Source of the DNA: a virus
Strand: one strand, 5' to 3'
IMG/VR virus record: IMGVR_UViG_3300036770_003326
Coordinates: 1 to 64,000 of that record
Length of the DNA stretch: 64,000 nt
Part shown: positions 10,036 through 62,319 of the stretch, piece after piece
Layout of the letters: the number at the start of each line of letters is the position of its first letter
How positions within the stretch are numbered: the first letter of the stretch is position 1
Notes under the pieces: generated by a model
What the model was told of the DNA's origin: nothing
The model's input: the letters and a program-made list of their open reading frames with translations, nothing else
Database searches by the model: none
Program-made: the position numbers and the translations under genes

Positions 10036-10965
10036 TCATTTTTTTCTGTAATCTCTAAATATATTTTTTAAATTACTATCATATTTAGAATAGTAATTAT
10101 TTTGCATATTTCCTCCTTGAGCAAATTTAATAGGCTTTAATAAAGTTTCAAATAAAGGTTTTTCTATTTTATCTACTTGTTTTTCTAAATACTCAGATCT
10201 ACCAGCATTTTCCATAGCTTGTATAATCTCATGATTTTTATCTATTTCAGTAGTAAGCCCTAAACCTTTATCAAAATATGGTCTTACTTTTGGAAGAGAC
10301 GGAGCTTGTATATTATATACTGGTGCTTGTTGTTTATATTCTATAGGAGGATTTGAAGCTGCTTGTGATTTATATTCTTCCCATTGTTTTAGAATATTAG
10401 GATCATAGTTGCTAAGTTTATTTGGAAGAGTCTCTAATACTGTATTTACTTTTTTTACATAATCAGATTCTCCCCCAGCATATCCTGCTTTAGCTACAGC
10501 ATTAATGTGATCTTGTGGAGTTTTAGCATTAAAGACCCCATTCTTTTTATATCTTCCATTATCAATATAAAAATCTACTTGAGCTTTTATTCCGTCAGAA
10601 ACAGTAGGATACGCCCTCCATTTGTAGCTTTGTTTAGTTTGTTTATTTACCATATCTACTACTTGCCCTTTCCAATTTTTATCTGCACGTAGTCCTCCAA
10701 AATTATTATACTTAGAACTTAATTCTGATTTTCCGTAACCTGTTTCAAATAGTATTTGAGCAGTAATACCTAAAGCATTTAGATCTTCGTTAGCAGCTAT
10801 TCTTCCTGCTTTTTTAGCAGCCTGAATATTATTATTTACTTCGTCATATATTAATTTAGCAATATCATTAGTATTTGCTTTTTTAAAATTAAAACTAGTA
10901 ACTGGCGGATTTACAGTATTTTCCAAATTAGCAACTATATTATTATATTTTTCTGCAATAGTCAT
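10036..10965 (-). CDS. GH73 glucosaminidase (virion-associated peptidoglycan hydrolase)
   Basis: AQILFETGYG...NNFGGLRA...WRAY...RY...AGYA motifs typical of FlgJ/GH73. Confidence 0.85.
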   Translation of the reverse strand: MTIAEKYNNIVANLENTVNPPVTSFNFKKANTNDIAKLIYDEVNNNIQAAKKAGRIAANEDLNALGITAQILFETGYGKSELSSKYNNFGGLRADKNWKGQVVDMVNKQTKQSYKWRAYPTVSDGIKAQVDFYIDNGRYKKNGVFNAKTPQDHINAVAKAGYAGGESDYVKKVNTVLETLPNKLSNYDPNILKQWEEYKSQAASNPPIEYKQQAPVYNIQAPSLPKVRPYFDKGLGLTTEIDKNHEIIQAMENAGRSEYLEKQVDKIEKPLFETLLKPIKFAQGGNMQNNYYSKYDSNLKNIFRDYRKK

Positions 10966-10966
10966 A

Positions 10967-13900
10967 TTAATATGTTTGAATATTAGACGCTTTAAAACTA
11001 GATAAATAACCTCCGTTAGCTTTTTGATTATTTATTTTTCTCTCTTGTGCTAGCATTTCTTTAGTAGGTTTTTTCCCTGAGCCTGCATTAGCTCGAATAT
11101 TATCCCAAAGACCTCTTTTAGAATAACTTCCGTCTGCACGTTTAATCATACCTCCATTTGCATAAGTTCCATGTTGAAATACATCATACATAGAATAATC
11201 TATTTTGCCTCCATTTGAGTATGTATTTGGATTTTCTCTATGCCATTTTTTAGTAGCAGCAACGCCTTGTGATACAGTTTTAGAATTTGCTTTATCAGTA
11301 AGATTTATTGTATCCCATTGTCCTTTATCTTCTTTAGGATGATTAACTATTATATCACCTTCTGCATTTTTATATACTCTATGATATTCTCCTCCTGCGG
11401 TAATAAATTTTCCTCCATTGCCATAATATCTACCTAAGCTAGATGCATACATACTAGGAATTAATCCTTGGCGCTCATATAAATTACTGCCATACTTAAA
11501 CTGTCTTCCTAACATTAGATTACCGTAATTTTCAGAATCTTGTAAAAGTTGATTATACTGATCGTATTCTTGTAAATATCTTTCAGCATCTCTTTGCATT
11601 TTTTTAGAAGCAAATCCTCCTTCAAAATTTATAGGTCTATTTTCTAGTGAAGCTTTTTCATATTCTCCAGGTTCCTCATCAGTGCCGTAATAGTAATCTG
11701 GATCGTAATCTGTTTGTTGCTGTACTCTTGCTGCAATAGGATTAATAAATTGATTTTGATTCCATCCACTTATATAAGGTAATCTAAGACCTCCAGATGT
11801 TTGGTAATTACTAGCGCCTTTTCCCATAAATGGAACTACTCTAGATTTAAATTTAGGAGTAGGTAAACCTGACATATAATACTCTTCATCAGGTACAAAT
11901 GATGGAGGATTTAATTCAGGACCCATAGAAGGCATTTCTTCTAATTGAGATATAGGTTCTTTTAATAAATCTATGCTAGATTTAGCAGGTATTGCTAAAT
12001 TTTCTCTCATAGCTAATATTGCAGGATCTATTACAGGTGCTTGAACTTGAGGTGTTACTGCTGCTTGATTTATTGGAGCTGTAGTATTTACTCCTATAGG
12101 TTGTAATGTAGGAGAAACATTATAAGTTTGGTTTAGTTCTTGTAATTTTTCAGGAGTTACTTTTTTTAATCTTTTATCTAAAGACTTAGCCATTTGATTT
12201 ACTTTTCTAGCATAAGTAGGTTCTCCTCCTGCGTAACCTGCTTTAGAAACAGCTGCTAAATATTCTTGAGTATTTTTAGCGTTAAATACTCCAGCTTTTC
12301 TATATCTAGGATTATCTAGTAAAAAATCTATTTGTGCTTCAAGTCCTTGCTCAGGTGTATCGTATGCTCGCCATAAAAACTTTTTACCTGTAGCTTTGTT
12401 AACCATAGATACAGTTTTTCCTCCTCTATCTATAAATCCTTGAGTAGCTCGTAAACCACCAAAGTTATTATATTTAGCAGTTAATCCTGATTTAGCATTT
12501 CCTGATTCTAATAATATTTGTGCTACTACTCCTCTAAGATCTAAGTTTTCTCCTGGTTTTATTTTACCTTCAGCTTTTTTTCTTTCTATAATATTAGCAA
12601 CAGTATTATACAATAAAGCACTTACTTCATTTGTATTTAGATTTTTTAAACTAGGTAATACTGGATTATCTGGTGGACCGTCTAACATTCCTCCTGAAGC
12701 AAAAGGTAATGCTGTAGTATCTCTATAAATAGGAGTGCCTTTAAAATTATAGTAAGTAGGAATATTAGGTGCTAAACTTCCGCCTGATTTATAAGTTTTA
12801 TTTAATTGTTGGTTCGCTAAAAATCCTCCTCCAATTACTCCTGGAATTGTTAAAGGAATTCTACCTGCCATTTTTGCTAAAAATGATGGACTCCAATTTT
12901 CTATTAATTGTTGTGTTTCTGTAGAATAAGGTCTTATAATTTGCTCTACTTTATCTACATCTTTATTAAATGTTTTAGATAATAATTTTAAATCTTCTGA
13001 AGATGCTCCTAGTTTTTCCATTCTTTTTCTAACATCTCTCATTTCCCTTATCATGTTTTTCTGTGTGTCTTTTAATCTAAATGCACTTGATTTTTTTATA
13101 TCTTCAGCACTAATAGGTCTTTGAAAATAATCAGCAATTCCTTCTGTTTTTAAATCTTCTTTTAATTGTTTTAATCTAACTTCAAATTCTGAAGGATCTG
13201 CAAAATAATCCATATTATCCGCTTCATAAAATGGATTATCATATTGAGTAGAATTTTGTTGTAAGTATTTTTTAGTTAAAAAATCAGGCAATAATTCATT
13301 ATCATTAGTTCTTTGATGGCCTAATTCGTGCCAAGTAGCTCCTGTGTCTGAAACAATTGATGTCCCTCCTCTACCTGAATACATTTGCGGATTAGTGTTA
13401 GCATTAACTACTCTTTCTGCAAAACTAGGAGTATATCCAGCAGGGTAATTTACACCACTACTATTTTTACTAAAATAAACACCCGCTGCATTTTTTTCAC
13501 CTATTTCTCCTACAGTTAGTTCTTTTTGTAAATTCTCTAAAGTAGTTGCTTTATAAGTTTCTATATCTACATCAGGATAATGTTCTTTCATTATTCTTTT
13601 AAATTCAGGACTATCATAATAAGCTTTTAAGTTTTCTACATACTCTTCTTGTAAAGTTTTTCCTGTATTATTATTTAAAGGAATTTTTTTATTACCTATA
13701 GTTGCTATTTGTATATTAGGATTGGAAACTGTACTATGATTATTTATAAGATAAGAAGCTCGTTCATTAGAGTTTATTGGATTAATTTTTGAATTTGTAG
13801 AAATTTGTTTATATCCTTTTAACCAGTGAGGAGTATTAAATGCTTTATCTTCTTGTACAAGCTGTTGCCAATCTTTTGTACCAAATATTTCAGACTCATT

Positions 13901-44816: not shown

Positions 44817-45065
44817 ATGAAATATACTGTAGAATTTAGCAAGGAAGTAACCAAGGATTGGGGTACTAGTTTTATTAGCAAGCTCGTGTTGCCTGTAGTT
44901 GATAACGTATTAGGATGCGGTCGCAAGACTACATACTACGTATGGGGCACCAAACAGCTCGAGGGTACCGTAGAACTCAACATCGACGAGTGGAATGTCG
45001 TGGAGAAGGAAGCGGTGATCAACGGAGAGACGATGATGCTGAAGTACATCACGGGGCCACGGTAG
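44817..45065 (+). CDS. First early gene, hypothetical, GC-rich
   Basis: 82 aa; many C/G-ending codons unlike the rest of the window; followed by hairpin CCCC-TTCG-GGGG. Confidence 0.7.
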   Translation: MKYTVEFSKEVTKDWGTSFISKLVLPVVDNVLGCGRKTTYYVWGTKQLEGTVELNIDEWNVVEKEAVINGETMMLKYITGPR

Positions 45066-45089
45066 TGGTCCCCCTTCGGGGGTCGATCT

Positions 45090-45895
45090 CAATGAGTAAA
45101 GCTATAAAGTCCTGTATAAAGAGGCCGTGATACTGCGTAAACGTACAACAAAGTGAACAACGTAAAGTATTGACAATGAGATACATAGTCATATATGGTG
45201 TGGTTACTAACTCATCCTGGGCCGTAAACCCTAACGCATAACTATGCGTGATTAGCCTATCATTATATATGTTATGGCTAAATGTATAATAAACAATTGT
45301 AGTAATAGAAGATACATCGTTTGTGTTGAGTATATCTCATGTAAATCTACCTATCTTTAAAAACCCCATGCTGAAATATAAGAACCAGTTGAATGTGGCT
45401 TTATTACAATTGTTTATATACTCTCATCCAATTGCAGGTAATGTGAGACTACCAGAAATGGGGTCCTGCTATAAATGTATCACATACTTCAAGGGTTGCA
45501 ACCTTGTGAGAGTACAATATTGCAGGACACAGCACTTTACAGGTGGGCAGTGTCCAACAAGAACTAATCAATTCTTGTATGGAAAAACTCTGTATTTGGT
45601 GAGTTATATTACTGTAAATAGTATAACAAATCCAATATTTAAGCTTGATAAGCTACACAGTATATTGTGGTTTGAGTAAAAAGACAATAAGCCCTTTGTG
45701 GTGAACAGTATAACAAGGACTCTGAACAAACCCTTGTAATCCTACTAATATACTAGTAGGTAGTAATGCACCATTCCTGATTCCCAAGGTCAGGCAGTTG
45801 TAAGAACAAGATAGACCTATTTATAGGTAGAAGAGCTACAGTGATGTGGCAAGAATTAACTCTTAAGTCTTACAACTGAGTGCAGAGGGGTATTT
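45090..45895 (+). ncRNA. Large structured non-coding region (one or several ncRNAs)
   Basis: Dense nested inverted repeats (see findings); no credible CDS. Confidence 0.55.
45758..45895 (+). ncRNA. Candidate twister ribozyme variant
   Basis: UAA-UGCA-CC-auu-CCUGA-UUCCCAAGG-UCAGG-[long P5]-AG-UGCA-GA-GGG matches twister topology (P2, P4, T1, T2); weak P1. Confidence 0.5.
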
Positions 45896-45935
45896 AACTT
45901 ATAGAAACTTTACTTATTTATTTAAACATAAACTT

Positions 45936-46160
45936 ATGACAAGAGCAGAAGCACTTAAAAAAACTAGAGAAAAATTTACTAATCTATTAGACGGTAAAGT
46001 TCTTCCTAATGCTACTATTACAGAAATTATTTTATACTATGAAACATTAGTAGTAAAGAATATTGCACCAATAGTTAAATCAAACTCTGGTATAATAGAT
46101 AATTTCCGTGAAGCAGAAATTCAACAATATCAAGAAGATAACGATGAGTGGTATCATTAA
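45936..46160 (+). CDS. Hypothetical early protein
   Basis: 74 aa with A-rich leader. Confidence 0.65.
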   Translation: MTRAEALKKTREKFTNLLDGKVLPNATITEIILYYETLVVKNIAPIVKSNSGIIDNFREAEIQQYQEDNDEWYH

Positions 46161-46189
46161 AATACCACTCTATTAAAACTATATAACTT

Positions 46190-46369
46190 ATGAAATACTC
46201 TAAACTATTTATGTACATTACTATACTAGGTATAGTATCAGGATTATTATCAGCTTATCTAATGCTAGTAAAAAACAACCCTTCAATAAGTGCTTTACTA
46301 GCTACAACATCTTTTACTTTATTATTCACAGGATCTATGCTAGACAATAAATCTAAATATAAAAATTAA
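46190..46369 (+). CDS. Small 2-TM membrane protein (59 aa)
   Basis: Translated by hand: MKYSKLFMYITILGIVSGLLSAYLML... Confidence 0.55.
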   Translation: MKYSKLFMYITILGIVSGLLSAYLMLVKNNPSISALLATTSFTLLFTGSMLDNKSKYKN

Positions 46370-46388
46370 TTTACTAAATCTTATCTAA

Positions 46389-46580
46389 ATGAAAACTTTA
46401 ATTGAATTTTGTATAGTACTAGTAATCACACTATTAACTTTTGGTATAGCTAGTTACACTAGTTTTAAATTTTCTAATAATCTCTTTATAATACTTTTTA
46501 TTTCTTTTACAGTATCCTTTATAACTTCTATAATATCTACTGAAATAATTATTAACTTAAAATATATAAATCATGATTAG
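46389..46580 (+). CDS. Small 2-TM membrane protein
   Basis: 63 aa, hydrophobic. Confidence 0.55.
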   Translation: MKTLIEFCIVLVITLLTFGIASYTSFKFSNNLFIILFISFTVSFITSIISTEIIINLKYINHD

Positions 46581-46830
46581 TACTTTAAATCAAAACTCAA
46601 CAGCAAAATCAAATGCTAACTTATTATTTCCTGAGCATATAGAAATCTCAGAGCGTGAGTTTTCTGATTATTATAATGCATTCTTATGCATGGACAGTAA
46701 ATTTATTAGAGATAACATGTCTGTAATAAATGAATCTGTATGGACTTTTAACTTTCATTATACTTTTTTCTGCGTTATACTAAATCCTGGATTATATAAC
46801 GAAGAACTTTACATGGGTGTAATAAAATAA
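46573..46830 (+). CDS. Hypothetical protein
   Basis: 85 aa; followed by hairpin agagccct...agggctct. Confidence 0.6.
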   Translation: MISTLNQNSTAKSNANLLFPEHIEISEREFSDYYNAFLCMDSKFIRDNMSVINESVWTFNFHYTFFCVILNPGLYNEELYMGVIK

Positions 46831-46926
46831 GTCAGAAGAGCCCTGTAACAAGGGCTCTATTTGATTAAGCTATAATAGGCTTAAAATAAATATATATTAT
46901 ATCATTTAATTTATTATATTTATATC

Positions 46927-47175
46927 ATGTTTGAAACTGTTAATATATTTACAATAAATATTAGTATAACTAAAACTAAGAATATACTATTAATAATATT
47001 TGCCGAGAATCTTACATCAATAGATGAAGTTAAAAGCTTTTATTTCAATAAATACAAACACTTACAAAAAGATCCTGATAAATTTAGTTTTATTCACAAA
47101 GGCAAATACTCTACTGACAGTAAGTATTTTGATCTAGCATGTGAAGGATTAAATTATTCCTGTACATTTTCTTAA
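46927..47175 (+). CDS. Hypothetical protein
   Basis: 82 aa; followed by a long hairpin at about 47181-47239. Confidence 0.55.
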   Translation: MFETVNIFTINISITKTKNILLIIFAENLTSIDEVKSFYFNKYKHLQKDPDKFSFIHKGKYSTDSKYFDLACEGLNYSCTFS

Positions 47176-47403
47176 TCTTTGGTTTCTTAGTAAACTATTC
47201 TTTTTACTTACAATTTTTAGGATAGTTTATTAAGAAACCTTTCTTTTTTATTTACACGCTAATATTATTCTGCATCGTCGCAAAAAGAATAATGGGCACT
47301 GGATATAATATGCTTTAGTTATATCTAGTATAGACTTTATAAGTCTGATCTATAAAGCACCTTAATTAATTTAATTTATAAACTTTTAAAAAATTTAAAA
47401 ATC

Positions 47404-47919
47404 ATGGAAAAAAGAATCATTTTAGAATCAGCAAAAGGTGTTAAGAATAACAAAGTTCAATTGTGTTTTTCTCAAATAGTAGAAAGCTCTAAAACAAACA
47501 CTAATGTATTAGGACTATTAAACGCATCTGATGAGCGTTTTACACAGTCTAAACCTCGTTATGCTTGGGTTACAGCAGAACCTAAAGATGTTAAAGCACA
47601 ATTTGGTATTGATGTAGATAGTCTTAAACAAGGTGATGTATTGGAAATAGGAGCTGTAGATCCAAGAATGGCATCATTCCCAGAAACAGCACTTAACATT
47701 CAAATTACCGAGACAACAGAAGGTAGTGACTATGATGTACAAAACTTCGAGACTCGTGCTAAGAGAGCAGGTAAAGATGGTGATTTCATTATGAAAGACG
47801 GTTTGTATATCTATGTGAATACTACTGTTGTACCAGGTGAGCCTAAGCATGTTATCATTACTGATACTGAACGAGTATCTGCTAATGGATCTTCTTTGGC
47901 AAACTCTTTAGGAGTATAA
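47404..47919 (+). CDS. Conserved crAss-like early protein (possibly ssDNA-binding)
   Basis: 171 aa; KRAGKDG...GLYIY motif; has its own terminator. Confidence 0.6.
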   Translation: MEKRIILESAKGVKNNKVQLCFSQIVESSKTNTNVLGLLNASDERFTQSKPRYAWVTAEPKDVKAQFGIDVDSLKQGDVLEIGAVDPRMASFPETALNIQITETTEGSDYDVQNFETRAKRAGKDGDFIMKDGLYIYVNTTVVPGEPKHVIITDTERVSANGSSLANSLGV

Positions 47920-47929
47920 TCTAACTATA

Positions 47930-47961
47930 AAACCAGGGTAAGTTGATTCTTGCCCTGGTTT
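47930..47961 (+). terminator. Intrinsic terminator / hairpin directly before the cassette array
   Basis: aaaccagggtaag...cttgccctggttt. Confidence 0.6.
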
Positions 47962-47991
47962 CTAATTATCTAACCTTTAAATCAGAATAAA

Positions 47992-48258
47992 ATGGAACAG
48001 AAACAGACAGCAGTAGAATGGTTGGTCCAACAACTAAGAAATGGTAAGGAATTTAATGATGAATTAATCCAACAAGCCAAAGCAATGGAGAAAGAAGAAA
48101 TAATGTATAGTGAGGAAGAAGTTTTAGAAATACTACAAAAATGGTCAATGTATCAAGTTGACATAGAGTTGAATAAATTAAATATAAAAGAACTAAATGA
48201 TGTGTTGAAAAAAACATTGTCATATAAAGAATGGTTTGGTCAAATCAAAAAGAAGTAA
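47992..48258 (+). CDS. Cassette ORF, TAVEWL / AKxMEKE family
   Basis: Starts at the ATG inside the repeat. Confidence 0.75.
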   Translation: MEQKQTAVEWLVQQLRNGKEFNDELIQQAKAMEKEEIMYSEEEVLEILQKWSMYQVDIELNKLNIKELNDVLKKTLSYKEWFGQIKKK

Positions 48259-48259
48259 T

Positions 48260-48322
48260 ATGGGAAAAGGATTAGACGTAGAAAAGTTTATGAAAGAAAA
48301 AGAAACCTTTAAATCAGAATAA
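48260..48322 (+). CDS. Mini ORF (20 aa) ending TFKSE
   Basis: MGKGLDVEKFMKEKETFKSE*. Confidence 0.5.
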   Translation: MGKGLDVEKFMKEKETFKSE

Positions 48323-48323
48323 A

Positions 48324-48548
48324 ATGAAAACAGCAGTAGAATGGTTGGTTGAAGAAATAAATAAACTAACTGGATTAACGATTCAAATGGATGAGCCAAT
48401 AATTGAACAAGCTAAAGAAATGGAAAAAGAGCAGATAAAAAGTGCATTCACACAAGGTGATTTATTTGCAGAAGATTATTTTAACCCTGAAAAATCTAAC
48501 ATCGATTGTTCAGAAAATTACTACAACAAAACCTTTAAATCAGAATAA
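48324..48548 (+). CDS. Cassette ORF, TAVEWL family
   Basis: Runs repeat to repeat, ending YYNKTFKSE. Confidence 0.8.
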   Translation: MKTAVEWLVEEINKLTGLTIQMDEPIIEQAKEMEKEQIKSAFTQGDLFAEDYFNPEKSNIDCSENYYNKTFKSE

Positions 48549-48636
48549 CGGTTTGCGGCTTTGCAATAGCCGCCAAAGAAGAATTTAATTATTAACCGAG
48601 AATTGTCAGGCGGCTATTGCAAAACCGCTGTTAGCC
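48543..48636 (+). mobile_element. attC-like site 1
   Basis: GAATAAC...20-bp arms (19/20 complementary)...GTTAGCC. Confidence 0.75.
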
Positions 48637-48663
48637 GCTGGCCTTTCTCACAACTTTAAAACA

Positions 48664-48894
48664 ATGACAGCAAAAGAACAAGCAAGTAGTTTAGTTGAGT
48701 ATTTTTGGACAGATGTTGAAGAGTTTAAACAATACGAAACTATTAAAATGACAAAAGAAATGGCTAAAGATTGTGCCATAAAAGTAGCTGAAGAAGCTAA
48801 AATAGAAATAGGAAATTTTGATAGAACTGATGGATTTGTCAAAACTCGTGAAGATTTTTGGGATGCTGTCATTGTCGAAATACGGTCTATGTAG
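48664..48894 (+). CDS. Integron-type cassette A ORF (MTAKE family)
   Basis: Flanked by GTTAGCCGC and its reverse complement GCGGCTAAC; paralog of 51113-51322. Confidence 0.8.
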   Translation: MTAKEQASSLVEYFWTDVEEFKQYETIKMTKEMAKDCAIKVAEEAKIEIGNFDRTDGFVKTREDFWDAVIVEIRSM

Positions 48895-48900
48895 GCTTGC

Positions 48901-49023
48901 GGCTAACGTTCCGAGTATTTGCGTAGTGCCTATACTGAACTATATTGTAAAATACAAAACTTAAAAATATGCAGAAAAGATTATTAGAATTACGAAAGGC
49001 ATTACGCAAATACTGTGTTATGT
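48901..49023 (+). mobile_element. attC-like site 2
   Basis: GGCTAAC...AGTATTTGCGTAGTGCCT / AGGCATTACGCAAATACT...GTTATGT. Confidence 0.8.
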
Positions 49024-49041
49024 GCCGTTTTTATTCAGATT

Positions 49042-49383
49042 ATGACAACGAAAGAGAAGATAATAAATCAAAGCATTGAGCAAGTTGAAAAGCAACTCAA
49101 AGAAATCAATTTGATACTTGAAGCTAATCCTTTAAGCGAGATATGTAAAATTAGACAAGAAGCACAAAAATTGCTCGATGAAAACAAAACTGTTGAGCAA
49201 AGAACGAGTGATGATTTTATTGCTAAAATAGAAGCATTGTCTAAACGTGAAAAAGAGCAATTTGCATTAGCTGAAAAAGGCAAGGATAGTATAAAATTGA
49301 TTGACGAAAAAGTCAAATTAGAGTTTGAGTTGTCAGACTTGCGAAATGAACTGTATCATATTGAACGTAGGCGCGTGTCTTAA
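49042..49383 (+). CDS. Integron-type cassette B ORF (coiled-coil, 113 aa)
   Basis: ATG at 49042; flanked by GTTATGTGCC and GGCACATAAC. Confidence 0.8.
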   Translation: MTTKEKIINQSIEQVEKQLKEINLILEANPLSEICKIRQEAQKLLDENKTVEQRTSDDFIAKIEALSKREKEQFALAEKGKDSIKLIDEKVKLEFELSDLRNELYHIERRRVS

Positions 49384-49389
49384 AATGGC

Positions 49390-49440
49390 ACATAACACCA
49401 AAGCAGGTGAAGTTTTAATTTCACTTGCTGACTGTTATCC
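49390..49440 (+). mobile_element. attC-like site 3 (short)
   Basis: ACATAAC...AGCAGGTGAAGTT / AATTTCACTTGCT...GTTATCC. Confidence 0.65.
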
Positions 49441-49484
49441 GCAGTTTTAATTGCGAAAGTTATTAACCTTTAAATCAGAATAAA

Positions 49485-49706
49485 ATGAAACAGACAGCCG
49501 TAGAATGGTTAGTTGAAAAATTTTCAACTCAAGGAACATTACATAGTTCAGATATATCACAAGCCAAAGCAATGGAGAAGGAGCAGATAATGGATGCAAG
49601 AGAAGATGGTCATTTATCTACATATGCAGAATATGGTTCAACTCCTAAATGTTACTTAGACGGAGGACATGAACAATACTACAACGAAACATTTAAATCA
49701 GAATAA
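49485..49706 (+). CDS. Cassette ORF, TAVEWL family
   Basis: Repeat to repeat; ends YYNETFKSE. Confidence 0.8.
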   Translation: MKQTAVEWLVEKFSTQGTLHSSDISQAKAMEKEQIMDAREDGHLSTYAEYGSTPKCYLDGGHEQYYNETFKSE

Positions 49707-49707
49707 G

Positions 49708-49905
49708 ATGGAACTATTTAAAAGTAAATGGGGTCAATGGACAGACCTATCAACTACGGGGTATATGGGGTATAAATATTTACTTCAAGCAAGAAGGCAT
49801 AAAGACGGAAGAATACAATACAGAGTAGAAAAAAGTAAGGATTGCTATACTTGCAACATTCCAACACTTGAACAATTAGAAAAAGTAACCTTTAAATCAG
49901 AATAA
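49708..49905 (+). CDS. Cassette ORF (MELFKSKWG...), 65 aa
   Basis: Start at the repeat ATG; ends TFKSE. Confidence 0.75.
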   Translation: MELFKSKWGQWTDLSTTGYMGYKYLLQARRHKDGRIQYRVEKSKDCYTCNIPTLEQLEKVTFKSE

Positions 49906-49906
49906 G

Positions 49907-50092
49907 ATGAAAACAATAAATGACTTTATTAAAGAACTTCAAATGATTAGTGAAGAAAAAAGAAAATTACCATTGGTTGTTCAATGTCCAAATGGGGAAA
50001 TAACATCACCAACAATTAAGATGATGTGGGATGAACCATTAATGATGTTTGAAAAAGAACCTGATAAAATGATTATTAGTTGGAGAGATTAA
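49907..50092 (+). CDS. Cassette ORF, hypothetical
   Basis: Start at the repeat ATG; stop overlaps the next repeat. Confidence 0.75.
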   Translation: MKTINDFIKELQMISEEKRKLPLVVQCPNGEITSPTIKMMWDEPLMMFEKEPDKMIISWRD

Positions 50093-50110
50093 CCTTTAAA
50101 TCAGAATAGA

Positions 50111-50509
50111 ATGATAATACAAACAAGAAGGACTTATGATTTTATTGAAATAAAAGTTGATGAAATTAAAACTACAATTTTTAAAAGTGACATTAAGGAA
50201 ATAAATGACACAATTGAAAATTTATTACAAGTAGTTGATGAATTAAAAACACTAAAAGAAAGACAAAAAAACAGAACTATGAAACAAACAGCAGTAGAAT
50301 GGTTGGTTAACGAACTTAAAAACAATCACGGTATAGATTTAAAATTATACAATGAGTTTGACAAAGCCAAAGAAATGGAGAAAAAGCAGAGAAAAAAAGA
50401 CTTTGTTAATGGCTATAAATCAAGAGCCAAAGAAAGCAATTTAATTTTTGATGAAACCTCTGAAATGTATGCAATTAAATTATTTAACGAAACCTTTAAA
50501 TCAGAATAG
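50111..50509 (+). CDS. Fused cassette ORF (unknown N-module + TAVEWL module from ATG 50279)
   Basis: Internal KNRT-MKQTAVEWL. Confidence 0.7.
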   Translation: MIIQTRRTYDFIEIKVDEIKTTIFKSDIKEINDTIENLLQVVDELKTLKERQKNRTMKQTAVEWLVNELKNNHGIDLKLYNEFDKAKEMEKKQRKKDFVNGYKSRAKESNLIFDETSEMYAIKLFNETFKSE

Positions 50510-50510
50510 A

Positions 50511-50897
50511 ATGAAAGCAAATGAATTAAGAATAGGAAATTATGTTTATGATACTTTAGGTAAAGTAAATACCTATATTGTAAAAGAACCACATAATCAA
50601 GTTAAACCAATCCCGCTAACAGAAGAATGGTTGTTGAAGTTTGGATTTAAAAAATACCCTGACATTAGAGATACATTTCAACAAGTATATTATGATTCCT
50701 ATCAACTTGAAATTGATAGATTTACTATTATTTCATTTTCTATCCAACAAAACAATAAAAATTTGATTAAGTGTAATTATGATAGAGGTTATAGGTCAGA
50801 AGATAATAAAAAAAATTATTACATCAAATATCTTCATCAACTTCAAAACCTATACTTTGCACTTACAGGAGAAGAATTAACCTTTAAATCAGAATAG
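50511..50897 (+). CDS. Cassette ORF, MKANELRIGN...IPLTEEWL...HQLQNLYFALTGEEL family
   Basis: Family recalled from Bacteroidota phages; runs repeat to repeat. Confidence 0.8.
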   Translation: MKANELRIGNYVYDTLGKVNTYIVKEPHNQVKPIPLTEEWLLKFGFKKYPDIRDTFQQVYYDSYQLEIDRFTIISFSIQQNNKNLIKCNYDRGYRSEDNKKNYYIKYLHQLQNLYFALTGEELTFKSE

Positions 50898-50898
50898 A

Positions 50899-51111
50899 AT
50901 GAAAACAATAACAAAATCAGTAATTAAGTTGTCGGATATTCCACAGCATTTACAACAAAATGTAGCATTACAAGGACATAAAATACATACTTATGCAGAG
51001 TTTCACATTGATAATTCAGAACAAGATGATTTAACATTGTGGCTATTAAATAAACATCCTACATTAAAAAGGAAAATAAGTTTTTTAATTCATATTGATA
51101 AATCAGAATAG
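50899..51111 (+). CDS. Cassette ORF, hypothetical
   Basis: Ends DKSE in the truncated repeat. Confidence 0.75.
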   Translation: MKTITKSVIKLSDIPQHLQQNVALQGHKIHTYAEFHIDNSEQDDLTLWLLNKHPTLKRKISFLIHIDKSE

Positions 51112-51112
51112 A

Positions 51113-51322
51113 ATGACAGCAAAAGAAAAAGCAAATAGATTGTGCATTGATTTTTTAATGAACATTGATACAGATGATTGTGATTTTGGAATGAATAAAG
51201 AAATGGCAAAACAATGTGCATTGGTTGCAGTGAATGAAATACTTGAAAGTTTTATAATAACTATCCCTAAACATCAAACTGAGTTTTGGGAGCAAGTTAA
51301 ACAAGAAATAATTAACCTTTAA
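51113..51322 (+). CDS. Cassette ORF, MTAKE family
   Basis: Start at the repeat ATG; ends NL* in a second frame of the next repeat. Confidence 0.75.
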   Translation: MTAKEKANRLCIDFLMNIDTDDCDFGMNKEMAKQCALVAVNEILESFIITIPKHQTEFWEQVKQEIINL

Positions 51323-51333
51323 ATTAGAATAAG

Positions 51334-51576
51334 ATGACAGCAGTAGAAGAATTAATACATTTTATTAAAAATGATAGAATGCAAAGTACATACACAAAAG
51401 AACAAATATTGGAACTACTTAAATTTAAGTTAGAAAAAGAGAAAGAGCAGATGATTGAATTTGCTAAGTACACAGAATTTATTGATACAGATAAAAGTGA
51501 TATGAACAAAGTAATAGACTTTTACTTAACACTTGACGGAGAAGAATTTGTTGAAGAAACCTTTAAATCAGAATAA
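51334..51576 (+). CDS. Cassette ORF, divergent TAVE / EKEQ family
   Basis: Repeat to repeat; ends TFKSE. Confidence 0.75.
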   Translation: MTAVEELIHFIKNDRMQSTYTKEQILELLKFKLEKEKEQMIEFAKYTEFIDTDKSDMNKVIDFYLTLDGEEFVEETFKSE

Positions 51577-51577
51577 G

Positions 51578-51779
51578 ATGGAAAACAGCAGTAGAATGGT
51601 TTCAAGAACAGTTTAATAAGTATTATGCTTTTTCAAAGGAAGAAATGCAAACATTTGATTGGATGTTTAACAAAGCCAAAGAAATGGAGAAAGAGCAGAT
51701 AATAGATGCTTGTAAACAATGTTCTTATAGTTATGAAGAAGCAGAACAATACTACAACGAAACCTTTAAATCAGAATAA
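51578..51779 (+). pseudogene. Frameshifted TAVEW-family cassette
   Basis: ATG+G+AAAACAGCAGTAGAATGG: one extra G; the shifted frame reads KTAVEWF...AKEMEKEQI...YYNETFKSE*. Confidence 0.7.
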
Positions 51780-51780
51780 G

Positions 51781-51858
51781 ATGATGATTGCAATTGTATT
51801 TTTCTTAATAGGAATAGTTGTTGGACTTATAATGGGTTACAACATAATGAAAAAATAA
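51781..51858 (+). CDS. Cassette micro-ORF, single TM helix (25 aa)
   Basis: MMIAIVFFLIGIVVGLIMGYNIMKK between two repeats. Confidence 0.6.
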   Translation: MMIAIVFFLIGIVVGLIMGYNIMKK

Positions 51859-51930
51859 TTAAATCAGAATAAGATGAAAGTAACATATAAATTTTCTTAT
51901 TATACTTTAAACGCTTTAAACTAAAATAAA

Positions 51931-52125
51931 ATGAAACAATTTCTTTTATATACACTCTCCTGGATAAGCCAAAACTTGGCTGTACCATTTTGGGTAGTAG
52001 GACACGTTCATTTGAGTATTAATGTATATGAAGATATTTACGAACTGCTAGCGTCATTTGGCATGAACGCAATTGTCCTAGCAGGATTTATTTACGATTA
52101 TTTAAAACAAATAAAAAAATTATAG
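51931..52125 (+). CDS. Small membrane protein
   Basis: 64 aa, hydrophobic; ATG within the degenerate repeat copy. Confidence 0.65.
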   Translation: MKQFLLYTLSWISQNLAVPFWVVGHVHLSINVYEDIYELLASFGMNAIVLAGFIYDYLKQIKKL

Positions 52126-52128
52126 CAT

Positions 52129-52269
52129 ATGAAATATGAATTTAGAATAATAAAATGGGATACACATTTTATGTTAATACCCACAATAGCAATAGTAAGA
52201 GAAGAAAATGGTGGTATAGGGATATCTTTAGTATGGTTTAATAGGGCAATAGAATTTATTGTGGGATGA
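52129..52269 (+). CDS. Hypothetical protein (46 aa)
   Basis: Translated by hand: MKYEFRIIKWDTHFMLIPTIAIV...; ATGA overlap with the next gene. Confidence 0.5.
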   Translation: MKYEFRIIKWDTHFMLIPTIAIVREENGGIGISLVWFNRAIEFIVG

Positions 52270-52505
52270 CAGAAGAATTTGTAAATAGAGCCATTGATAA
52301 ATTATTTATTATAAATAATAATTCTTTAGTCATACAAGAATTTAGTATTTATTTAGAATATAAGACTTGGTTTATAAAAACCCTTAAAAAACATAATAGT
52401 ACTTATACTAAAAGAGATTTACTAAGAATTTGGAGTGAATTTGAAGAAAAATATATTATAATCCTTAAAATTAAAAATCATGAATATACCTATGAACAAG
52501 AATAG
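52266..52505 (+). CDS. Hypothetical protein
   Basis: 79 aa. Confidence 0.55.
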   Translation: MTEEFVNRAIDKLFIINNNSLVIQEFSIYLEYKTWFIKTLKKHNSTYTKRDLLRIWSEFEEKYIIILKIKNHEYTYEQE

Positions 52506-52618
52506 TTCCCCTAAAACCTTACCTGAAATAATATCCTATTGGAAAGGATTTAAAGGGAATAGTTTTAATATTGATTTATACATAAAAATATGCTTGGCTA
52601 AAGCTAAATTAATAAATC

Positions 52619-52885
52619 ATGAAAAAAACTGAACAGCTTACTAGAGTAAGATTAGACGAACTAAGTTTATATCTACAAACAATATATCAGCAGTATGGCA
52701 AAAAAACTAATCAAGAATATGCTGATTTAGTGCAGCATCATTTTAAAGTAGAATGTAGTACTCAAGATATAGAATTTATAGAAGACTTAGAGCACCACAA
52801 AAAACAATTAGATTATGAACTAATATCCAGAAGAGAAGAATATTTTAGATCTCAAGGATTATCAAACTTTTTAGATTATGAGTAA
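52619..52885 (+). CDS. Hypothetical protein
   Basis: 88 aa. Confidence 0.6.
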   Translation: MKKTEQLTRVRLDELSLYLQTIYQQYGKKTNQEYADLVQHHFKVECSTQDIEFIEDLEHHKKQLDYELISRREEYFRSQGLSNFLDYE

Positions 52886-53126
52886 TAGTGTAATACAAGA
52901 AATTATCACAAGATTAGAAACAGAGTATGATAAAGCTCACAGTGTTGAATCTAAAAGTATATTAGCATATCTAACAGGGCTGTTAAAAAATAATTATGTT
53001 ATTAAAGAAAAAAATCTTTTAGAAAAATTTTACATTAAAGGCATAATGCAGAGTATAGATAGTTTTGAAAATGATACTATTTTAAAATCTTTTGACGATC
53101 TTTATAATCAAGAAAACTTAACATGA
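52878..53126 (+). CDS. Hypothetical protein
   Basis: 82 aa. Confidence 0.6.
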   Translation: MSNSVIQEIITRLETEYDKAHSVESKSILAYLTGLLKNNYVIKEKNLLEKFYIKGIMQSIDSFENDTILKSFDDLYNQENLT

Positions 53127-55306: not shown

Positions 55307-56148
55307 AAATGAATGGGACCTTACTCAGTGATGAGTATTGCAAACTCCGTGAATTGCTGGAAGGCTAAGGGCACGTCCGCCTATGCTAATCAGCAGCCAA
55401 GACTACTAGGAATAGTAGTAAGGTTCAGAGACTAGGTTATGGAGACCAGAACGGTCGGTAAAAACCCACGAGTGCGGAGCATCTTTAATTAATTATCCAA
55501 ATAAACTATTAGGATAATTAAAACAATTTAAGTATTTTTGCTAAAATATTAAAACTATGATAGCAAAAAAATGTAGTAAATGCCAAAAAGTACTTCCTAT
55601 AGAAGAATTTTATAAATATGCCAAAAGTAAAGACGGGTTAACACATCATTGTCAGCATTGTTATAGAAAATATAGGAAAGAAAAACAAGAACATTATCGT
55701 CAATATATGGAAAATCGTAGAAAAACTGATAATGAACGTGTCAAACAAATGAAAAATAAGTCTTGGCAAAATTTAGATCCTAGGAAAAAAATGTTACAAC
55801 AAGTTAAAAATCGTTGTAATAGAAAAAACTTAGAATTTAATTTAGAATTAGAAGATATTATTTTACCGCCAGTATGTCCATTATTAGAAATACCTTTTGT
55901 TGTAGGTACTAGAGATAATTATGAACACACATATAGTTTAGATAGGATAGACTCTTCTAAAGGATATATTAAAGGTAATGTTTGGGTAATTACAAAGTTG
56001 GCAAATTCTATGAAAAACTCTGCTTCTAAAGAAGAGTTAGTAGTTTTTGCTAAAAACATATTTAAATATTTTAAAGATGATGATATAGTCCGAACTGTAT
56101 AGAAATATACAGAAATATGAGATAAAGAGCTCATATAGTAACAAATTG
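55307..56148 (+). mobile_element. Group I intron (IA2-like) in polA
   Basis: Exon-terminal U55306 and intron-terminal G56148; P AATTGCTGGAA, Q AATCAGCAG, R TTCAGAGACTA, S GATATAGTCC; P3 CTCCG/CGGAG; P8 CATCTTTAA/TTAAAGATG; splicing restores NYP-IQGS. Confidence 0.92.
55557..56102 (+). CDS. Intron-encoded HNH-like homing endonuclease
   Basis: N-terminal CxxC...CxxC; SLDRIDSSKGY...GNVWVI...NSMK; lies in the P8 loop. Confidence 0.85.
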   Translation: MIAKKCSKCQKVLPIEEFYKYAKSKDGLTHHCQHCYRKYRKEKQEHYRQYMENRRKTDNERVKQMKNKSWQNLDPRKKMLQQVKNRCNRKNLEFNLELEDIILPPVCPLLEIPFVVGTRDNYEHTYSLDRIDSSKGYIKGNVWVITKLANSMKNSASKEELVVFAKNIFKYFKDDDIVRTV

Positions 56149-60403: not shown

Positions 60404-61078
60404 ATGGCACAATTAGTATTCCTGGTTGGAAAATCGGGTATGGGTAAATCTACCTCATTGAGAAACCTAAACCCTGATGAAACTGTAATTATCAACACTG
60501 ATCAAAAAGCGTTGCCTTTCAAACAGTTTAATCTAAAATATAATGAGGAAAGAAAGAATTACAAAAAGACTTCTGATGCTGTAGAAGTCTATAAAGTACT
60601 GAACAAAGTAAACAGCATGGAAAATGTTAAAACTGTTGTAATAGATACTTGGTCAAGAATTATGACTGACGCTATTATGTCACAAAGTTTTCGTGCAGAA
60701 AAAGGCTTTGATAAATGGTCTAAGATGGCCGCTAATCAATATGATTTAATTAATTATATTAACGACGGTATGAGAGATGATATAATAGTATATCTAATGG
60801 CTCATCCTGAAACTCATTTTGATGAAAACGGCTTTTCTACTGAACGTATTGGCGTACAAGGTAAAATGCTTGAGCGTTTTGTGCCAGAAAGTTTTAGTAC
60901 CATAGTACTTTATGCAGAAATTATCAAACAGCCTGGACAAGCTAACAAACATGTATTTAGAACTGTATCTTCAGGTTCTGATACTTGTAAAACGCCTTTA
61001 GAAATGTTTGAAACAGACAGTGTAGAAAATGATTTATTACTTGTAAATCAAAAAATTAGAGAATATTATTCAATTTAA
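60404..61078 (+). CDS. AAA_24 / Sak4-like ATPase
   Basis: GKSGMGKSTS, VVIDT, MAH, CKTPLEMF. Confidence 0.8.
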   Translation: MAQLVFLVGKSGMGKSTSLRNLNPDETVIINTDQKALPFKQFNLKYNEERKNYKKTSDAVEVYKVLNKVNSMENVKTVVIDTWSRIMTDAIMSQSFRAEKGFDKWSKMAANQYDLINYINDGMRDDIIVYLMAHPETHFDENGFSTERIGVQGKMLERFVPESFSTIVLYAEIIKQPGQANKHVFRTVSSGSDTCKTPLEMFETDSVENDLLLVNQKIREYYSI

Positions 61079-61095
61079 AAATAAAATAAAAACAA

Positions 61096-61689
61096 ATGGA
61101 AGATTTAATTTGGGACGGAGTACCCGCACAAAGAAAGAAAAGAGAAGAGAAATTTTCATTTCCTGTAATAACATTGGCAGCATTGGATAAGCCAGGAGCG
61201 GGGAGAAAATTTATATTTAATAAGGCTGCACAAGAATTATTAAATATTCAAGGTGAAGAAAGAGTTTCTTTTGGATTTAGCGCTGATAGAAGTATTATTG
61301 CGGTTCGTAAAGCTACTGATATAAATTCTGGTATTCAGCTTACTAAAACTTGTACTATTAGTGATAAGAAAACTTATGAGTTTATTGCTAAAATTCTTAA
61401 TCTAGATACTAGTGTAGAAAATAATTTTGAAATAGTATCTAACGGGTCTTTAAATACTTTAAAATTGCACACAAATATTGGTGTAATAGACGAAGTTGTA
61501 ATAGAAGAATCTCAAGATAATTTTGAAGTAACTCAAGAGCAAGCAGTAATGCCTGAGCCTGAAGCTATTGAAGAAGAAGAAATAGAAGAAGATTTTTCTG
61601 ATGTAGAAGTAAATATAGACGATATGCCATTTGCTTTAGATCCAGAGTTTTCTAAAGGAACAGAAGATAATACAGAAGAAGGTTGGTAA
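61096..61689 (+). CDS. Hypothetical protein with acidic tail
   Basis: 197 aa. Confidence 0.65.
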   Translation: MEDLIWDGVPAQRKKREEKFSFPVITLAALDKPGAGRKFIFNKAAQELLNIQGEERVSFGFSADRSIIAVRKATDINSGIQLTKTCTISDKKTYEFIAKILNLDTSVENNFEIVSNGSLNTLKLHTNIGVIDEVVIEESQDNFEVTQEQAVMPEPEAIEEEEIEEDFSDVEVNIDDMPFALDPEFSKGTEDNTEEGW

Positions 61690-61710
61690 TTAATAATTAA
61701 ATAAATAAAT

Positions 61711-62319
61711 ATGTATAATTTAAATGATTCGAGTTTTGACTCAAAAGGTAGTGTAATTATTTTTAACGATGGTAAAGCAGGTCTAGTAGAAAATGTAACT
61801 ATGACTGTTTCTAAAAAGAAACCTGAAGATAAAGAAAACGCTCCTGATTACAAAGTAATATTTACTGACGCAAACGGTGGCGAATGTTCTACTTCTTATT
61901 GGTATGTTACTAAAGCTACTGAGTATGCTACTATTGAAGACCAAGTTAAAAAACAAGGTACAGCAATGAAGCATATTATTCATGCTATTTACGGAAAAGA
62001 TTTTCAAATTCCTGTAAATGCTACAACTCCGCAACAGTTACTTGATCAGTCTATGAAAGTTATTCGTGACGGTCTTGCATCTGGTGCTAAGTTTAGAATA
62101 TTTGCTACTTATGGTACTCTAAATTCTACAAAAAATTATATTCAACCTCGTAGTTGGGTTCCTTTTGTAGAAAATATGAGCCATCCTGTTACAGAGACAG
62201 CGTTGAAATTATCTTCTAATGTTGACGCAATGGAGCGTCTTACAGAAGATAATGTAGCTCCTACAAAATCTAATGAGAGTCTTGCTAATAGCATTATCTC
62301 TGATGGAGACGATTGGTAA
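61711..62319 (+). CDS. Putative ssDNA-binding protein
   Basis: Beta-rich N-terminus, acidic DGDDW tail, near the AAA ATPase and primase. Confidence 0.5.
   Translation: MYNLNDSSFDSKGSVIIFNDGKAGLVENVTMTVSKKKPEDKENAPDYKVIFTDANGGECSTSYWYVTKATEYATIEDQVKKQGTAMKHIIHAIYGKDFQIPVNATTPQQLLDQSMKVIRDGLASGAKFRIFATYGTLNSTKNYIQPRSWVPFVENMSHPVTETALKLSSNVDAMERLTEDNVAPTKSNESLANSIISDGDDW

Follow-up and report, generated by a model that had tools for sequence, protein, structure and literature searches.

A putative stop-restart junction repeat at mosaic boundaries of small accessory genes in phages of probable Flavobacterium-type hosts

Introduction

In the modular theory of phage evolution, associated with Susskind and Botstein and with the boundary sequences of lambdoid phages, short conserved sequences at gene boundaries are said to guide the homologous exchange of modules. 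In integrons, the boundary is the palindromic attC site (R''-L''..L'-R'), which is served by the integrase IntI. Two phage systems offer the closest described parallels. First, the promoter-early stem-loops (PeSLs) of T4-type phages combine sigma70 promoters, terminator stem-loops and a Shine-Dalgarno (SD) site, and reporters have shown their function in transcription (Arbiol et al., 2010, PMC2839356). Second, a role in translation initiation has been proposed, though left unproven, for the start-associated sequences (SAS) and extended SAS (ESAS) of the Cluster K mycobacteriophages (Pope et al., 2011, PMC3203893). Here, we describe a 23-nucleotide (nt) junction repeat that recurs between small open reading frames (ORFs) at 47972-51933 of a 64,000-nt stretch of viral DNA, positions 1 to 64,000 of the IMG/VR record IMGVR_UViG_3300036770_003326 (hereafter, the window).

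Arbiol et al. describe the PeSLs as short conserved cassettes repeated between small non-essential ORFs of hyperplastic regions, reaching from an upstream stop to a downstream start, whose mutual recombination explains insertions, deletions and replacements among related phages. Like them, the junction repeat lies in an island that is missing from backbone relatives, coincides with breaks in homology and is found at one repeat-to-repeat joint. It differs from them in measuring 23 nt and having no promoter consensus, hairpin or SD site, in presumably acting at the level of translation, and in being common to phages of very different genome size. With the SAS, as presented by Pope et al., it shares an asymmetric sequence in one orientation, a distance of a few nt (3-7 in the SAS) from mostly ATG starts, a place in the non-structural half of the genome, an upstream stop that sometimes falls inside the repeat, and rarity or absence in the host genome. 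However, the SAS hold the SD core AGGAG, belong to a single phage cluster and are tied to particular gene families, whereas the junction repeat lacks an SD sequence, carries stops in all three frames, is independent of the phage backbone and coincides with mosaic breakpoints.

The likeness to integrons and to clusters of attC sites lacking integron-integrases (CALINs) lies in promoterless small cassettes of one orientation that are exchanged at a repeated boundary, and in an attC-like block nested within the array; the 23-nt repeat itself, in contrast, is non-palindromic, unfolded, without an associated integrase and a putative translation signal in its own right. The linkers of the modular theory, for their part, are mostly hypothetical or weakly conserved, whereas here an exact 18-23-mer recurs across many phages and its coincidence with breakpoints can be quantified. 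What is new, then, is a putative SD-independent, three-frame stop-restart junction, common to phage lineages and placed at recombination breakpoints, which lacks the features that define PeSLs, SAS and integrons.

Copies of the repeat and the gene ends they supply

The sequence AACCTTTAAATCAGAATARRATG has 12 matches at up to three mismatches in the window, all on the plus strand and all within 47972-51876, as against 0.01 expected (100 dinucleotide shuffles, none of which reached 12). Nine copies are exact (starting at 47972, 48304, 49465, 49887, 50091, 50491, 50879, 51558 and 51761), two have one mismatch (49688 and 51314) and one, truncated at its 5' end, has three (51854). There are three further sites: a search with a 13-mer core added the copy at 48530 and a truncated copy with its ATG at 51113 (51093-51115), and a degenerate copy lies at 51911-51933. 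The resulting 15 sites all fall within 47972-51933 at spacings of 57-935 bp. A preliminary description of this DNA, made from its letters alone, had arrived at the same inventory (12 near-identical, two truncated and one degenerate copies separating small ORFs) and at nearly the same spacing. It had also seen the repeat nowhere else in the window, and this extends to the whole 89,529-bp virus record (about 70% complete according to CheckV), where a 16-mer search allowing two mismatches yielded nothing beyond 47.9-51.9 kb, its 12 forward matches all lying at 47974-51778.

That unrelated proteins share the C-terminus TFKSE, as the same description had it, is true of eight ORFs (48260-48322, 48324-48548, 49485-49706, 49708-49905, 50111-50509, 50511-50897, 51334-51576 and 51645-51779), among which are the unrelated phrog_10066 and a family starting MELFKSKWGQW. 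Other upstream genes run into the repeat in two further frames, so that they end ..INL* (at 51322) or ..WRD* (at 50092, via a TAAcc that overlaps the first AA of the repeat). Its statement that every copy ends an upstream gene holds for most of them and fails for two, which terminate none: the copy at 47972 comes after a hairpin 53 nt past the preceding stop, and that at 49465 follows non-coding DNA. The hairpin (47929-47962, CCAGGG..14 nt..CCCTGG) stands between the end of the gene 47404-47919 and the first copy, and was missed by the terminator scan mentioned below because its loop exceeds 8 nt.

A proposed stop-restart junction with an idealised start context

With positions numbered from the A of the start codon (0), the repeat closes all three reading frames within 21 nt, by (T)AA at -21 to -19, TAA at -14 to -12 and TAA or TAG at -4 to -2; in the main frame the stop is 1 nt ahead of the ATG. 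All three are used: at 195 exact instances of the repeat, the upstream ORF (of at least 35 codons) enters in the TFKSE* frame in 121 cases, in the NL* frame in 28 and in the TAAcc frame in 20, with no such ORF at the remaining 26. The repeat places adenines at -3, -5, -6, -8, -11, -12 and -13. Baez et al. (2019, PMC6847099) identified adenines at -3, -6, -12 and -13 as positive determinants of initiation in Flavobacterium johnsoniae, an organism in which ribosomes disregard SD sequences. The 53 other genes of the window have the same preference, with peaks of adenine at -13 (0.55), -12 (0.74), -11 (0.75), -8 (0.60), -6 (0.57) and -3 (0.74) over a background of 0.33. The fraction of G upstream of these genes is at most 0.11 from -16 to -6 and 0.17 at -5, a depletion that speaks against the use of SD sequences by this phage.

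The surrounding RNA is predicted to be unstructured: eight 61-nt RNAs centred on the repeat have minimum free energies of -0.8 to -5.5 kcal/mol and z-scores of +0.2 to +1.5, each being weaker than the mean of its own shuffles. The Bacteroidetes promoter consensus TTTG-N15-23-TAnnTTTG has no match in 44-54 kb (four in the whole window, with 6.3 expected), a scan for sigma70-type promoters was uninformative (75 hits versus 58.9), and the terminator scan returned no terminator-like site in 47972-51933. An Rfam scan of 45000-53000 on both strands (E<=1) gave four sub-threshold chance matches, none at the repeat, and no twister ribozyme, including at 45758-45895. We also considered TURBS-like reinitiation (termination upstream ribosome-binding site) through pairing with host 16S rRNA. 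The best duplex, CCUUUAAAUC with the internal GGGUUUAAAGGG (rRNA positions 554-565, dG -12.1), was rejected as unsupported, since 9.3% of 300 shuffles equal it and shuffled sequences often contain runs of 10 pairs.

With the upstream stop close to or overlapping the next start and neither promoter nor terminator consensus in between, the repeat is most simply read as a stop-restart junction within an operon, one that offers an idealised local context for initiation and at which translation of the upstream and downstream genes may be coupled. The suggestion of the preliminary description that the repeat provides the start signal for the next gene is rendered plausible by the fixed spacing to the ATG, the adenines at the Flavobacterium determinants and the unstructured RNA.

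Distribution among phages and hosts

The preliminary description had proposed a search for the 23-mer in phage and metagenome databases. Such a search recovers the 16-base core of the repeat in at least 120 IMG/VR contigs, many of them with two to six co-oriented copies; the loci compared below were chosen from this listing for holding an exact copy. In the 120 IMG/VR loci and the window taken together there are 178 exact cores, 160 of which are followed by an ATG at exactly 2 nt (nine have it at 0-3 nt, one at 7 nt and eight have none). The bases preceding the core, which starts with CC, are AAA in 104, TAA in 60, GAA in five and CAA in two, giving a common left edge ..AA|CC in 171 of the 178. 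Records at least 95% complete, of 29 to 160 kb, have one to five copies, always on one strand per record. The full range of records with the repeat is 29-224 kb, those of 48-224 kb holding one to six copies. This presence in near-complete records of such different sizes indicates that the repeat is common to clearly different phages. The array in the window is the largest found, and sister phages that share its flanking gene and DNA polymerase have none to three copies.

None of the 50,697 GenBank records of isolate phages in the INPHARED collection contains the repeat (24 partial chance matches only), and the 4.8-kb array region has just three matches, each about 50-60 nt long, with Tenacibaculum phage JQ and Cellulophaga phage phi10:1. 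A literature search, which did not extend to supplements, found neither the string TTTAAATCAGAATA nor any description of junction repeats in Flavobacterium phages. In 185,579 species genomes there are 10 stretches with the exact 23-mer. Six of them are contigs of metagenome-assembled genomes (MAGs) that carry the same cassettes and are variously binned (five of 0.5-5 kb and one of 33.7 kb, behind locus L131), and a seventh is on a 118-kb MAG contig (L130). The remaining three come from the chromosomes of Flavobacterium limi, F. pectinovorum and F. calami (L132, L135 and L136), at sites orthologous to one another; these are the sole isolate genomes with the repeat in these searches. Their copy is exact over 25 bases (TAACC...AAAATG); small paralogous genes in tandem stand on either side of it, and a response-regulator gene follows downstream. 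The idea that the repeat is a host-wide signal was rejected, since four Flavobacterium genomes have a single exact copy each and near-matches in them occur at about the level of controls (24 vs 10, 17 vs 19, 14 vs 10 and 9 vs 5). The labels of these MAGs and isolates, the short similarities to Tenacibaculum and Cellulophaga phages and the missing SD signals together point to Flavobacteriia as the probable hosts.

As a separate observation, two junction repeats enclose a tRNA-like gene, itself interrupted by about 90 inserted nt, in L111 (2420-2564; Rfam RF00005 at 34.4 bits, gathering threshold 29) and also in L012 and L087. It is preceded by the mini-ORF ATGAAATAG, and contigs that are otherwise alike (L073, L037) vary in whether they have it at the repeat. 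ARAGORN called no tRNA in L111, L012 or L087.

Homology between phages breaks at the repeat

We compared all repeat-bearing loci against each other by blastn, retaining high-scoring segment pairs (HSPs) of at least 150 nt and 70% identity and counting a break where the alignment is lost no more than 30 nt from the repeat. By this measure, 609 of 658 site-partner pairs (0.93) show a break, and in 49 the homology continues across the repeat. The corresponding fraction is 0.55 (1994/3607) at the stops of small ORFs on the same strand within 3 kb, 0.45 at the stops of all ORFs of 80 aa or more and 0.135 for randomly placed sites, an excess over ordinary gene ends whose size is probably overestimated for reasons given below. 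Relative to the start of the repeat, HSPs on the upstream side stop at +15 to +40 and those on the downstream side begin at -5 to +5. The repeat alone is what such loci share.

The segments bounded by repeats are correspondingly diverse: 386 of them fall into 303 clusters at 75% identity, and the multi-member clusters mostly have different neighbours (5/5, 5/6, and 4/4 on each side). For instance, 48324-48547, which runs precisely from an ATG up to the following repeat, recurs in L024 at 99.1% identity between unrelated flanks. Gene content thus changes between phages at the repeat, as the preliminary description had anticipated, and a joint of the junction-skipping kind that it had also envisaged is present in one public contig: record 20 of the Logan run X6 joins 49925-50095 straight to 51859-51936 with 0-1 differences, skipping 1763 bp from repeat to repeat. 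As the stretch shared at this joint is shorter than the Logan k of 31, an artefact of the assembly graph is argued against. With sides of 171 and 78 nt it is the sole Logan joint on which we rely; most others, such as the equally repeat-to-repeat joints 49480>50882 and 49692>50511, have short sides (mostly under 40 nt). Gaps in the coverage of the stretch in runs X4, X6, X8 and X15 were not read as absence, and the RNA run X15 consists of short contigs that reveal neither expression nor transcript ends. Taken together, these comparisons of assembled sequences make it very probable that the repeat marks mosaic boundaries.

A backbone relative of the phage, L159, contains two other junction repeats in the equivalent region (10624-13163), namely TTAAACCAAAACAAAG(aag)ATG in eight copies and TAAACAATAGAGATATG in seven. 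Each opens with a stop codon and runs directly up to an ATG, and each is rich in A, including at -6, -12 and -13. The TTAAACCAAAACAAAG type is present in at least 120 IMG/VR contigs (L162-L281 among them), where its 181 instances have the ATG at 0 in 112 cases and at +3 in 24; for instances in multi-copy loci the figure is 87 of 88. Its break fraction is 139/186 (0.75) vs 0.44 and 0.135 for the controls. That the type of repeat fails to follow the phage backbone argues against a specific factor encoded by the backbone and for junctions that move with the cassettes.

A proposed portable junction that may double as recombination homology

We propose that the repeat serves phages of Flavobacterium-type hosts, which do not use SD sequences, as a portable stop-restart junction between cistrons. 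Its three-frame stops would terminate any gene placed upstream, after which the ribosome would initiate or reinitiate on the next gene, the start signal being the unstructured A-rich leader with adenines at initiation-promoting positions together with the ATG. Because the same bases flank many unrelated genes in many phages, the identical 18-23 bases, often extended by ATGAAA or ..TACTACAACGAA, would also serve as short homology tracts. Homologous or annealing-type recombination at these tracts, for which a Sak4-like annealase encoded by the phage is a candidate enzyme, could insert, delete and swap cassettes between co-infecting phages, while keeping the copies identical and spreading them. 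This combination of translation junction and recombination homology is the explanation we favour, and we consider it reasonably probable.

Several findings weigh against it or remain outside it. First, all 18 positions are nearly invariant, though such a leader needs only a few adenines, and the mismatches are bimodally distributed, with 92 exact copies (a class inflated by the selection of loci that hold an exact copy), 15 with one or two mismatches, 12 with three or four, and then background. Such a scarcity of intermediates is as compatible with recognition by a specific factor as with homogenisation by recombination. Second, the controls for the break fraction contain spurious ORFs, and the loci were selected via the repeat, whose sites occupy the most plastic parts of the genomes; the margin by which the repeat exceeds ordinary gene ends is therefore probably overestimated, though its direction is clear. 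Third, all comparative data are metagenome assemblies, so that some mosaic joints could be chimeras, a worry eased by the repeat (23-45 nt) being shorter than reads and than Logan 31-mers plus flanks. Fourth, the exact chromosomal copy in three Flavobacterium isolates is unexplained by a model of phage junctions, and the tRNA-like gene between two copies is not accounted for by a pure translation signal.

The first of these points bears most directly on an alternative, in which the repeat is an operator on mRNA or DNA, through which one trans-acting protein or small RNA co-regulates the early accessory genes (like the targets of T4 RegA, and as proposed for the mycobacteriophage SAS), recombination being a by-product. 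Besides the near-invariance with few intermediates, the strict orientation and ATG spacing and the confinement to a single early region would suit an operator, and the conserved chromosomal copy would suit a host factor; the SAS precedent leaves the same question open (PMC3203893). However, the copy number is independent of the backbone (15 here, 0-3 in sisters and 1-6 across the 48-224 kb records), and, since a sister phage uses other repeats, any factor encoded by the phage would need to move together with the cassettes. Near-matches in host genomes at about control level, and a 16S rRNA complementarity that 9.3% of shuffles equal, speak against an operator as well. We accordingly regard an operator as improbable, if the strongest of the competing explanations.

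If the favoured explanation of a portable junction with recombination homology is true, one short sequence solves both the expression of a new gene in mid-operon and the provision of a place at which to recombine it, in hosts without SD-guided initiation. The linker hypothesis of the modular theory would become directly testable. With the repeat as a sequence-defined tag, a large and rapidly changing set of orphan early genes could be catalogued (303 or more cassette clusters in the loci compared, and 1987 clusters for the TAVEW family alone, described below), which probably encode host-takeover or anti-defence functions. The repeat is also a candidate portable translation-initiation cassette for genetic tools in Flavobacteriia. 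At least three junction repeats of the adaptor type were seen, two of them widespread. A bolder reading, less probable than not, is that unrelated phages of Flavobacterium-type hosts share a common pool of small accessory genes via a universal 23-nt adaptor (three-frame stop, optimal SD-independent start and crossover in one), which also docks attC-like cassettes, the several adaptors acting as parallel 'standards'. A gene that acquires the adaptor would then become plug-and-play across phage lineages, a sequence-defined instance of the 'linker' of the modular theory.

A nested attC-like block and candidate machinery of recombination

The third copy of the repeat (48530-48548), which ends in TAA with no ATG, is followed by a GC-richer block (48549-49464) with a 19-nt direct copy of the junction repeat on each side. 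The block contains three AAC..hairpin..GTT elements (48546-49440) with DNA folds of z -2.2 to -4.5, and two ORFs, each with its own perfect inverted arms: 48664-48894, with arms at 48630-48644 and 48893-48907 (GTTAGCCGC../..GCGGCTAAC), and 49042-49383, with arms at 49015-49031 and 49382-49398 (GTGTTATGTGCC../..GGCACATAACAC). By analogy, this layout follows the logic of integron cassettes with attC-like sites, and at the stop codon of copy 3 a second cassette system, of different structure, is thus docked. The third attC-like element recurs in nine other viral contigs (among L111 and L282-L289). Across the 10 loci its right side is always fused to the junction repeat and its left edge is always a variable xxxAAC. 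In L284, L111 (2190-2285) and L285 it is 'empty', directly following a repeat copy (..CAGAATAAC|ACCAAAG..).

These features bring up the possibility that the 23-nt repeat is itself an attI- or attC-like core site of an integron-like system, whose recombinase is encoded by the host or by the 30% of the genome that the record lacks. The genuine attC-like block docked exactly at the stop codon of copy 3 and the 'empty' elements between two repeat copies would fit, as would the shared left edge ..AA|CC: AAC is the trinucleotide of the integron crossover point (G|TT / AA|C). However, the TAVEW codons for E-T-F account for the AAC just as well. Moreover, the repeat is asymmetric, its symmetry being limited to TTTAAA with no attC-like fold, and a recombination site has no need of three-frame stops or of single-base spacing to an ATG. 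Profiles of tyrosine (PF00589) and serine (PF00239) recombinases found nothing in the 89.5-kb record at its roughly 70% completeness, and PF00589 is likewise missing from the nine other records with the attC-like element, two of which are about 100% complete. We consider such a site quite unlikely.

The record does encode a Sak4-like single-strand annealing protein (60404-61078, plus strand; phrog_2872, E 1.1e-64; PF13479 above cut-off) and an endonuclease VII or HNH-type endonuclease of the replication-recombination module (55557-56102, plus strand; phrog_3322, 3.4e-34; phrog_1035, 7.1e-29). Sak4 anneals oligonucleotides that are up to 20% diverged (PMC5928155), and the Sak4-like protein is a candidate enzyme for recombination at short homologies. 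With these two proteins present, and neither a recombinase nor dyad symmetry, homology-driven exchange is favoured. The dedicated integron-like mechanism advanced in the preliminary description is not supported, given the lack of a recombinase in the roughly 70% complete record, the unfolded asymmetric repeat and its single-base tie to the ATG, and 'integron-like' holds by analogy only; that description had itself seen no integrase in the window, which is true of the whole record. Of the two recombination factors it named, the Sak4-like protein is confirmed by profiles, and the putative single-stranded DNA-binding protein (61096-62319) has no match in Pfam or PHROGs.

A further explanation, slightly less probable again, treats the repeat as a transcription element, either a phage promoter for leaderless or near-leaderless cassette transcripts or an RNA-processing site. 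The tRNA-like gene flanked by two copies could be taken this way, and TAAATCAG fits four of the six specified positions of the Bacteroidetes -7 box, TAnnTTTG. However, there is no -33 element at the right distance and no full consensus in 44-54 kb, and upstream genes enter the repeat in frame, as in an operon. Most transcripts of F. johnsoniae are reported to be leadered (PMC6847099).

Probable origin of the repeat from the TAVEW family

Several cassette proteins belong to a family that we call TAVEW (MKQTAVEWL..AKEMEKEQI..EQYYNETF..), which comprises 1987 clusters at 90% identity (E<=1e-3) and has neither a Pfam family nor a name, the ESM Atlas showing viral hypothetical clusters alone. The array has seven TAVEW paralogs (47992-51779). 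Three blocks of their genes (5' MKQTAVEWL, middle AKEMEKEQI and 3' EQYYNETF) are kept at the nucleotide level, with hypervariable stretches between them. Among the best 120 of the listed family matches, 61 end in TFKSE and the others retain YYNETF and then diverge (KNK, KKK, NK, KQQEQ and others). Of the 130 loci that bear the repeat, 61-64 encode TAVEW homologs; the repeat adjoins the 3' end of the homolog in 57-60 of them and its 5' end in five or six. Most simply, the (A)AACCTTT 5' half of the repeat would be a fossil of the C-terminal TAVEW codons E-T-F, joined to K-S-E-stop and a leader, and the repeat probably derives from the 3' end of this gene family.

While 74 of 123 ORFs in the TFKSE frame have the TAVEW tail YYxxTFKSE, the other 49 have different tails (about six of them TAVEW variants). 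The 15 homologs of phrog_10066 share a conserved end ..FALTGEEL, followed by TFKSE* in seven, by TY[KNS]C* in five, by the repeat read as ..INL* in one and by other ends in two; members of phrog_21441 enter the repeat in the NL* frame in five of eight cases. Judged by these tails, and by the joining of one family to the repeat in different frames, the repeat is a nucleotide-level junction rather than a protein feature. The least likely explanation, that the copies are no more than the conserved 3' ends of tandem TAVEW duplicates and the shuffling a product of metagenome mis-assembly at repeats, can point to the TAVEW tails, to the homologs upstream of the repeat and to data consisting entirely of assemblies, but it is opposed by the 49 other tails, by 48 of the 195 instances being in other frames and 26 after non-coding DNA, by the family joined in two frames, by a repeat shorter than reads and assembly k-mers, and by independent assemblies from different studies with the same cassettes in different contexts.

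Two cassettes in the array depart from the regular pattern. The TAVEW paralog 51578-51779 has one extra G right after the ATG, which shifts the frame (intact from 51579) and may reflect a pseudogene, an assembly error or a deliberate shift. The ORF 50111-50509 is a fusion of an unrelated 56-aa N-terminal part with a complete TAVEW gene (internal MKQTAVEWL at 50280), from between which one junction repeat seems to have been lost.

Genomic setting and layout of the array

The minus strand at 1-44.4 kb contains large, presumably structural genes. Rightward genes from about 45 kb are small ORFs, followed by the DNA polymerase (53552), the endonuclease VII/HNH protein (55557), helicases, the Sak4-like annealase and a primase, and the repeat copies are confined to this early, non-structural region of the window. 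Among the comparative loci, 22 encode a relative of the left flanking gene 47404-47919 (46-72% identity), and their DNA polymerases are 63-77% identical. An ortholog of 52619-52885 sits about 75-110 nt after the flank-gene ortholog in at least nine of these 22 relatives. This near-adjacency indicates that 47.9-52.6 kb is an insertion or expansion specific to this phage, and the accessory island as a whole (47920-52618, plus strand) is absent from the backbone relatives; apart from TAVEW relatives, none of its cassettes was found in the 22 loci. Searches of PHROGs and Pfam gave only unnamed families for the cassette proteins, with phrog_10066 at 50511-50897 and phrog_21441 at 48664-48894 and 51113-51322, and the ESM Atlas only viral hypothetical clusters, so that none of them has a named function.

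All elements of the array are on the plus strand. Copy 1 (47972-47994, exact), after the hairpin, starts a TAVEW-like ORF of 88 aa (47992-48258). Copy 2 (48304-48326, exact) ends a 20-aa ORF (48260-48322, ..ETFKSE*) and starts the TAVEW paralog 48324-48548, which in turn ends in copy 3 (..NKTFKSE*), an exact 19-mer whose TAA is followed by a C and the GC-rich palindrome of the nested block. Beyond this block, copy 4 (49465-49487, exact) starts the TAVEW paralog 49485-49706 (..YYNETFKSE*), ended by copy 5 (49688-49710, one mismatch), which starts 49708-49905; this gene, not a TAVEW member, ends ..KVTFKSE* in copy 6 (49887-49909, exact), the start of 49907-50092. At copy 7 (50091-50113, exact) the upstream ORF ends in the third frame (..WRD*) and the fusion ORF starts, to be closed (..NETFKSE*) by copy 8 (50491-50513, exact), which starts the phrog_10066 member. 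The latter ends ..GEELTFKSE* in copy 9 (50879-50901, exact), from which 50899-51111 starts.

Copy 10 (51093-51115), truncated at its 5' end so that only ..ATAAATCAGAATAGAATG is kept, ends 50899-51111 (..IDKSE*) and starts the second phrog_21441 gene, which terminates in the second frame (..EIINL*) in copy 11 (51314-51336, one mismatch). Copy 11 starts 51334-51576, which ends ..EETFKSE* in copy 12 (51558-51580, exact), where the ATG with its extra G frameshifts the TAVEW paralog 51579-51779. This paralog ends ..YYNETFKSE* in copy 13 (51761-51783, exact), the start of a hydrophobic ORF of 25 aa (51781-51858). Copy 14 (51854-51876, 5'-truncated, three mismatches) starts a 16-aa ORF (51874-51924), and the degenerate copy 15 (51911-51933, five mismatches) starts the ORF 51931-52125.

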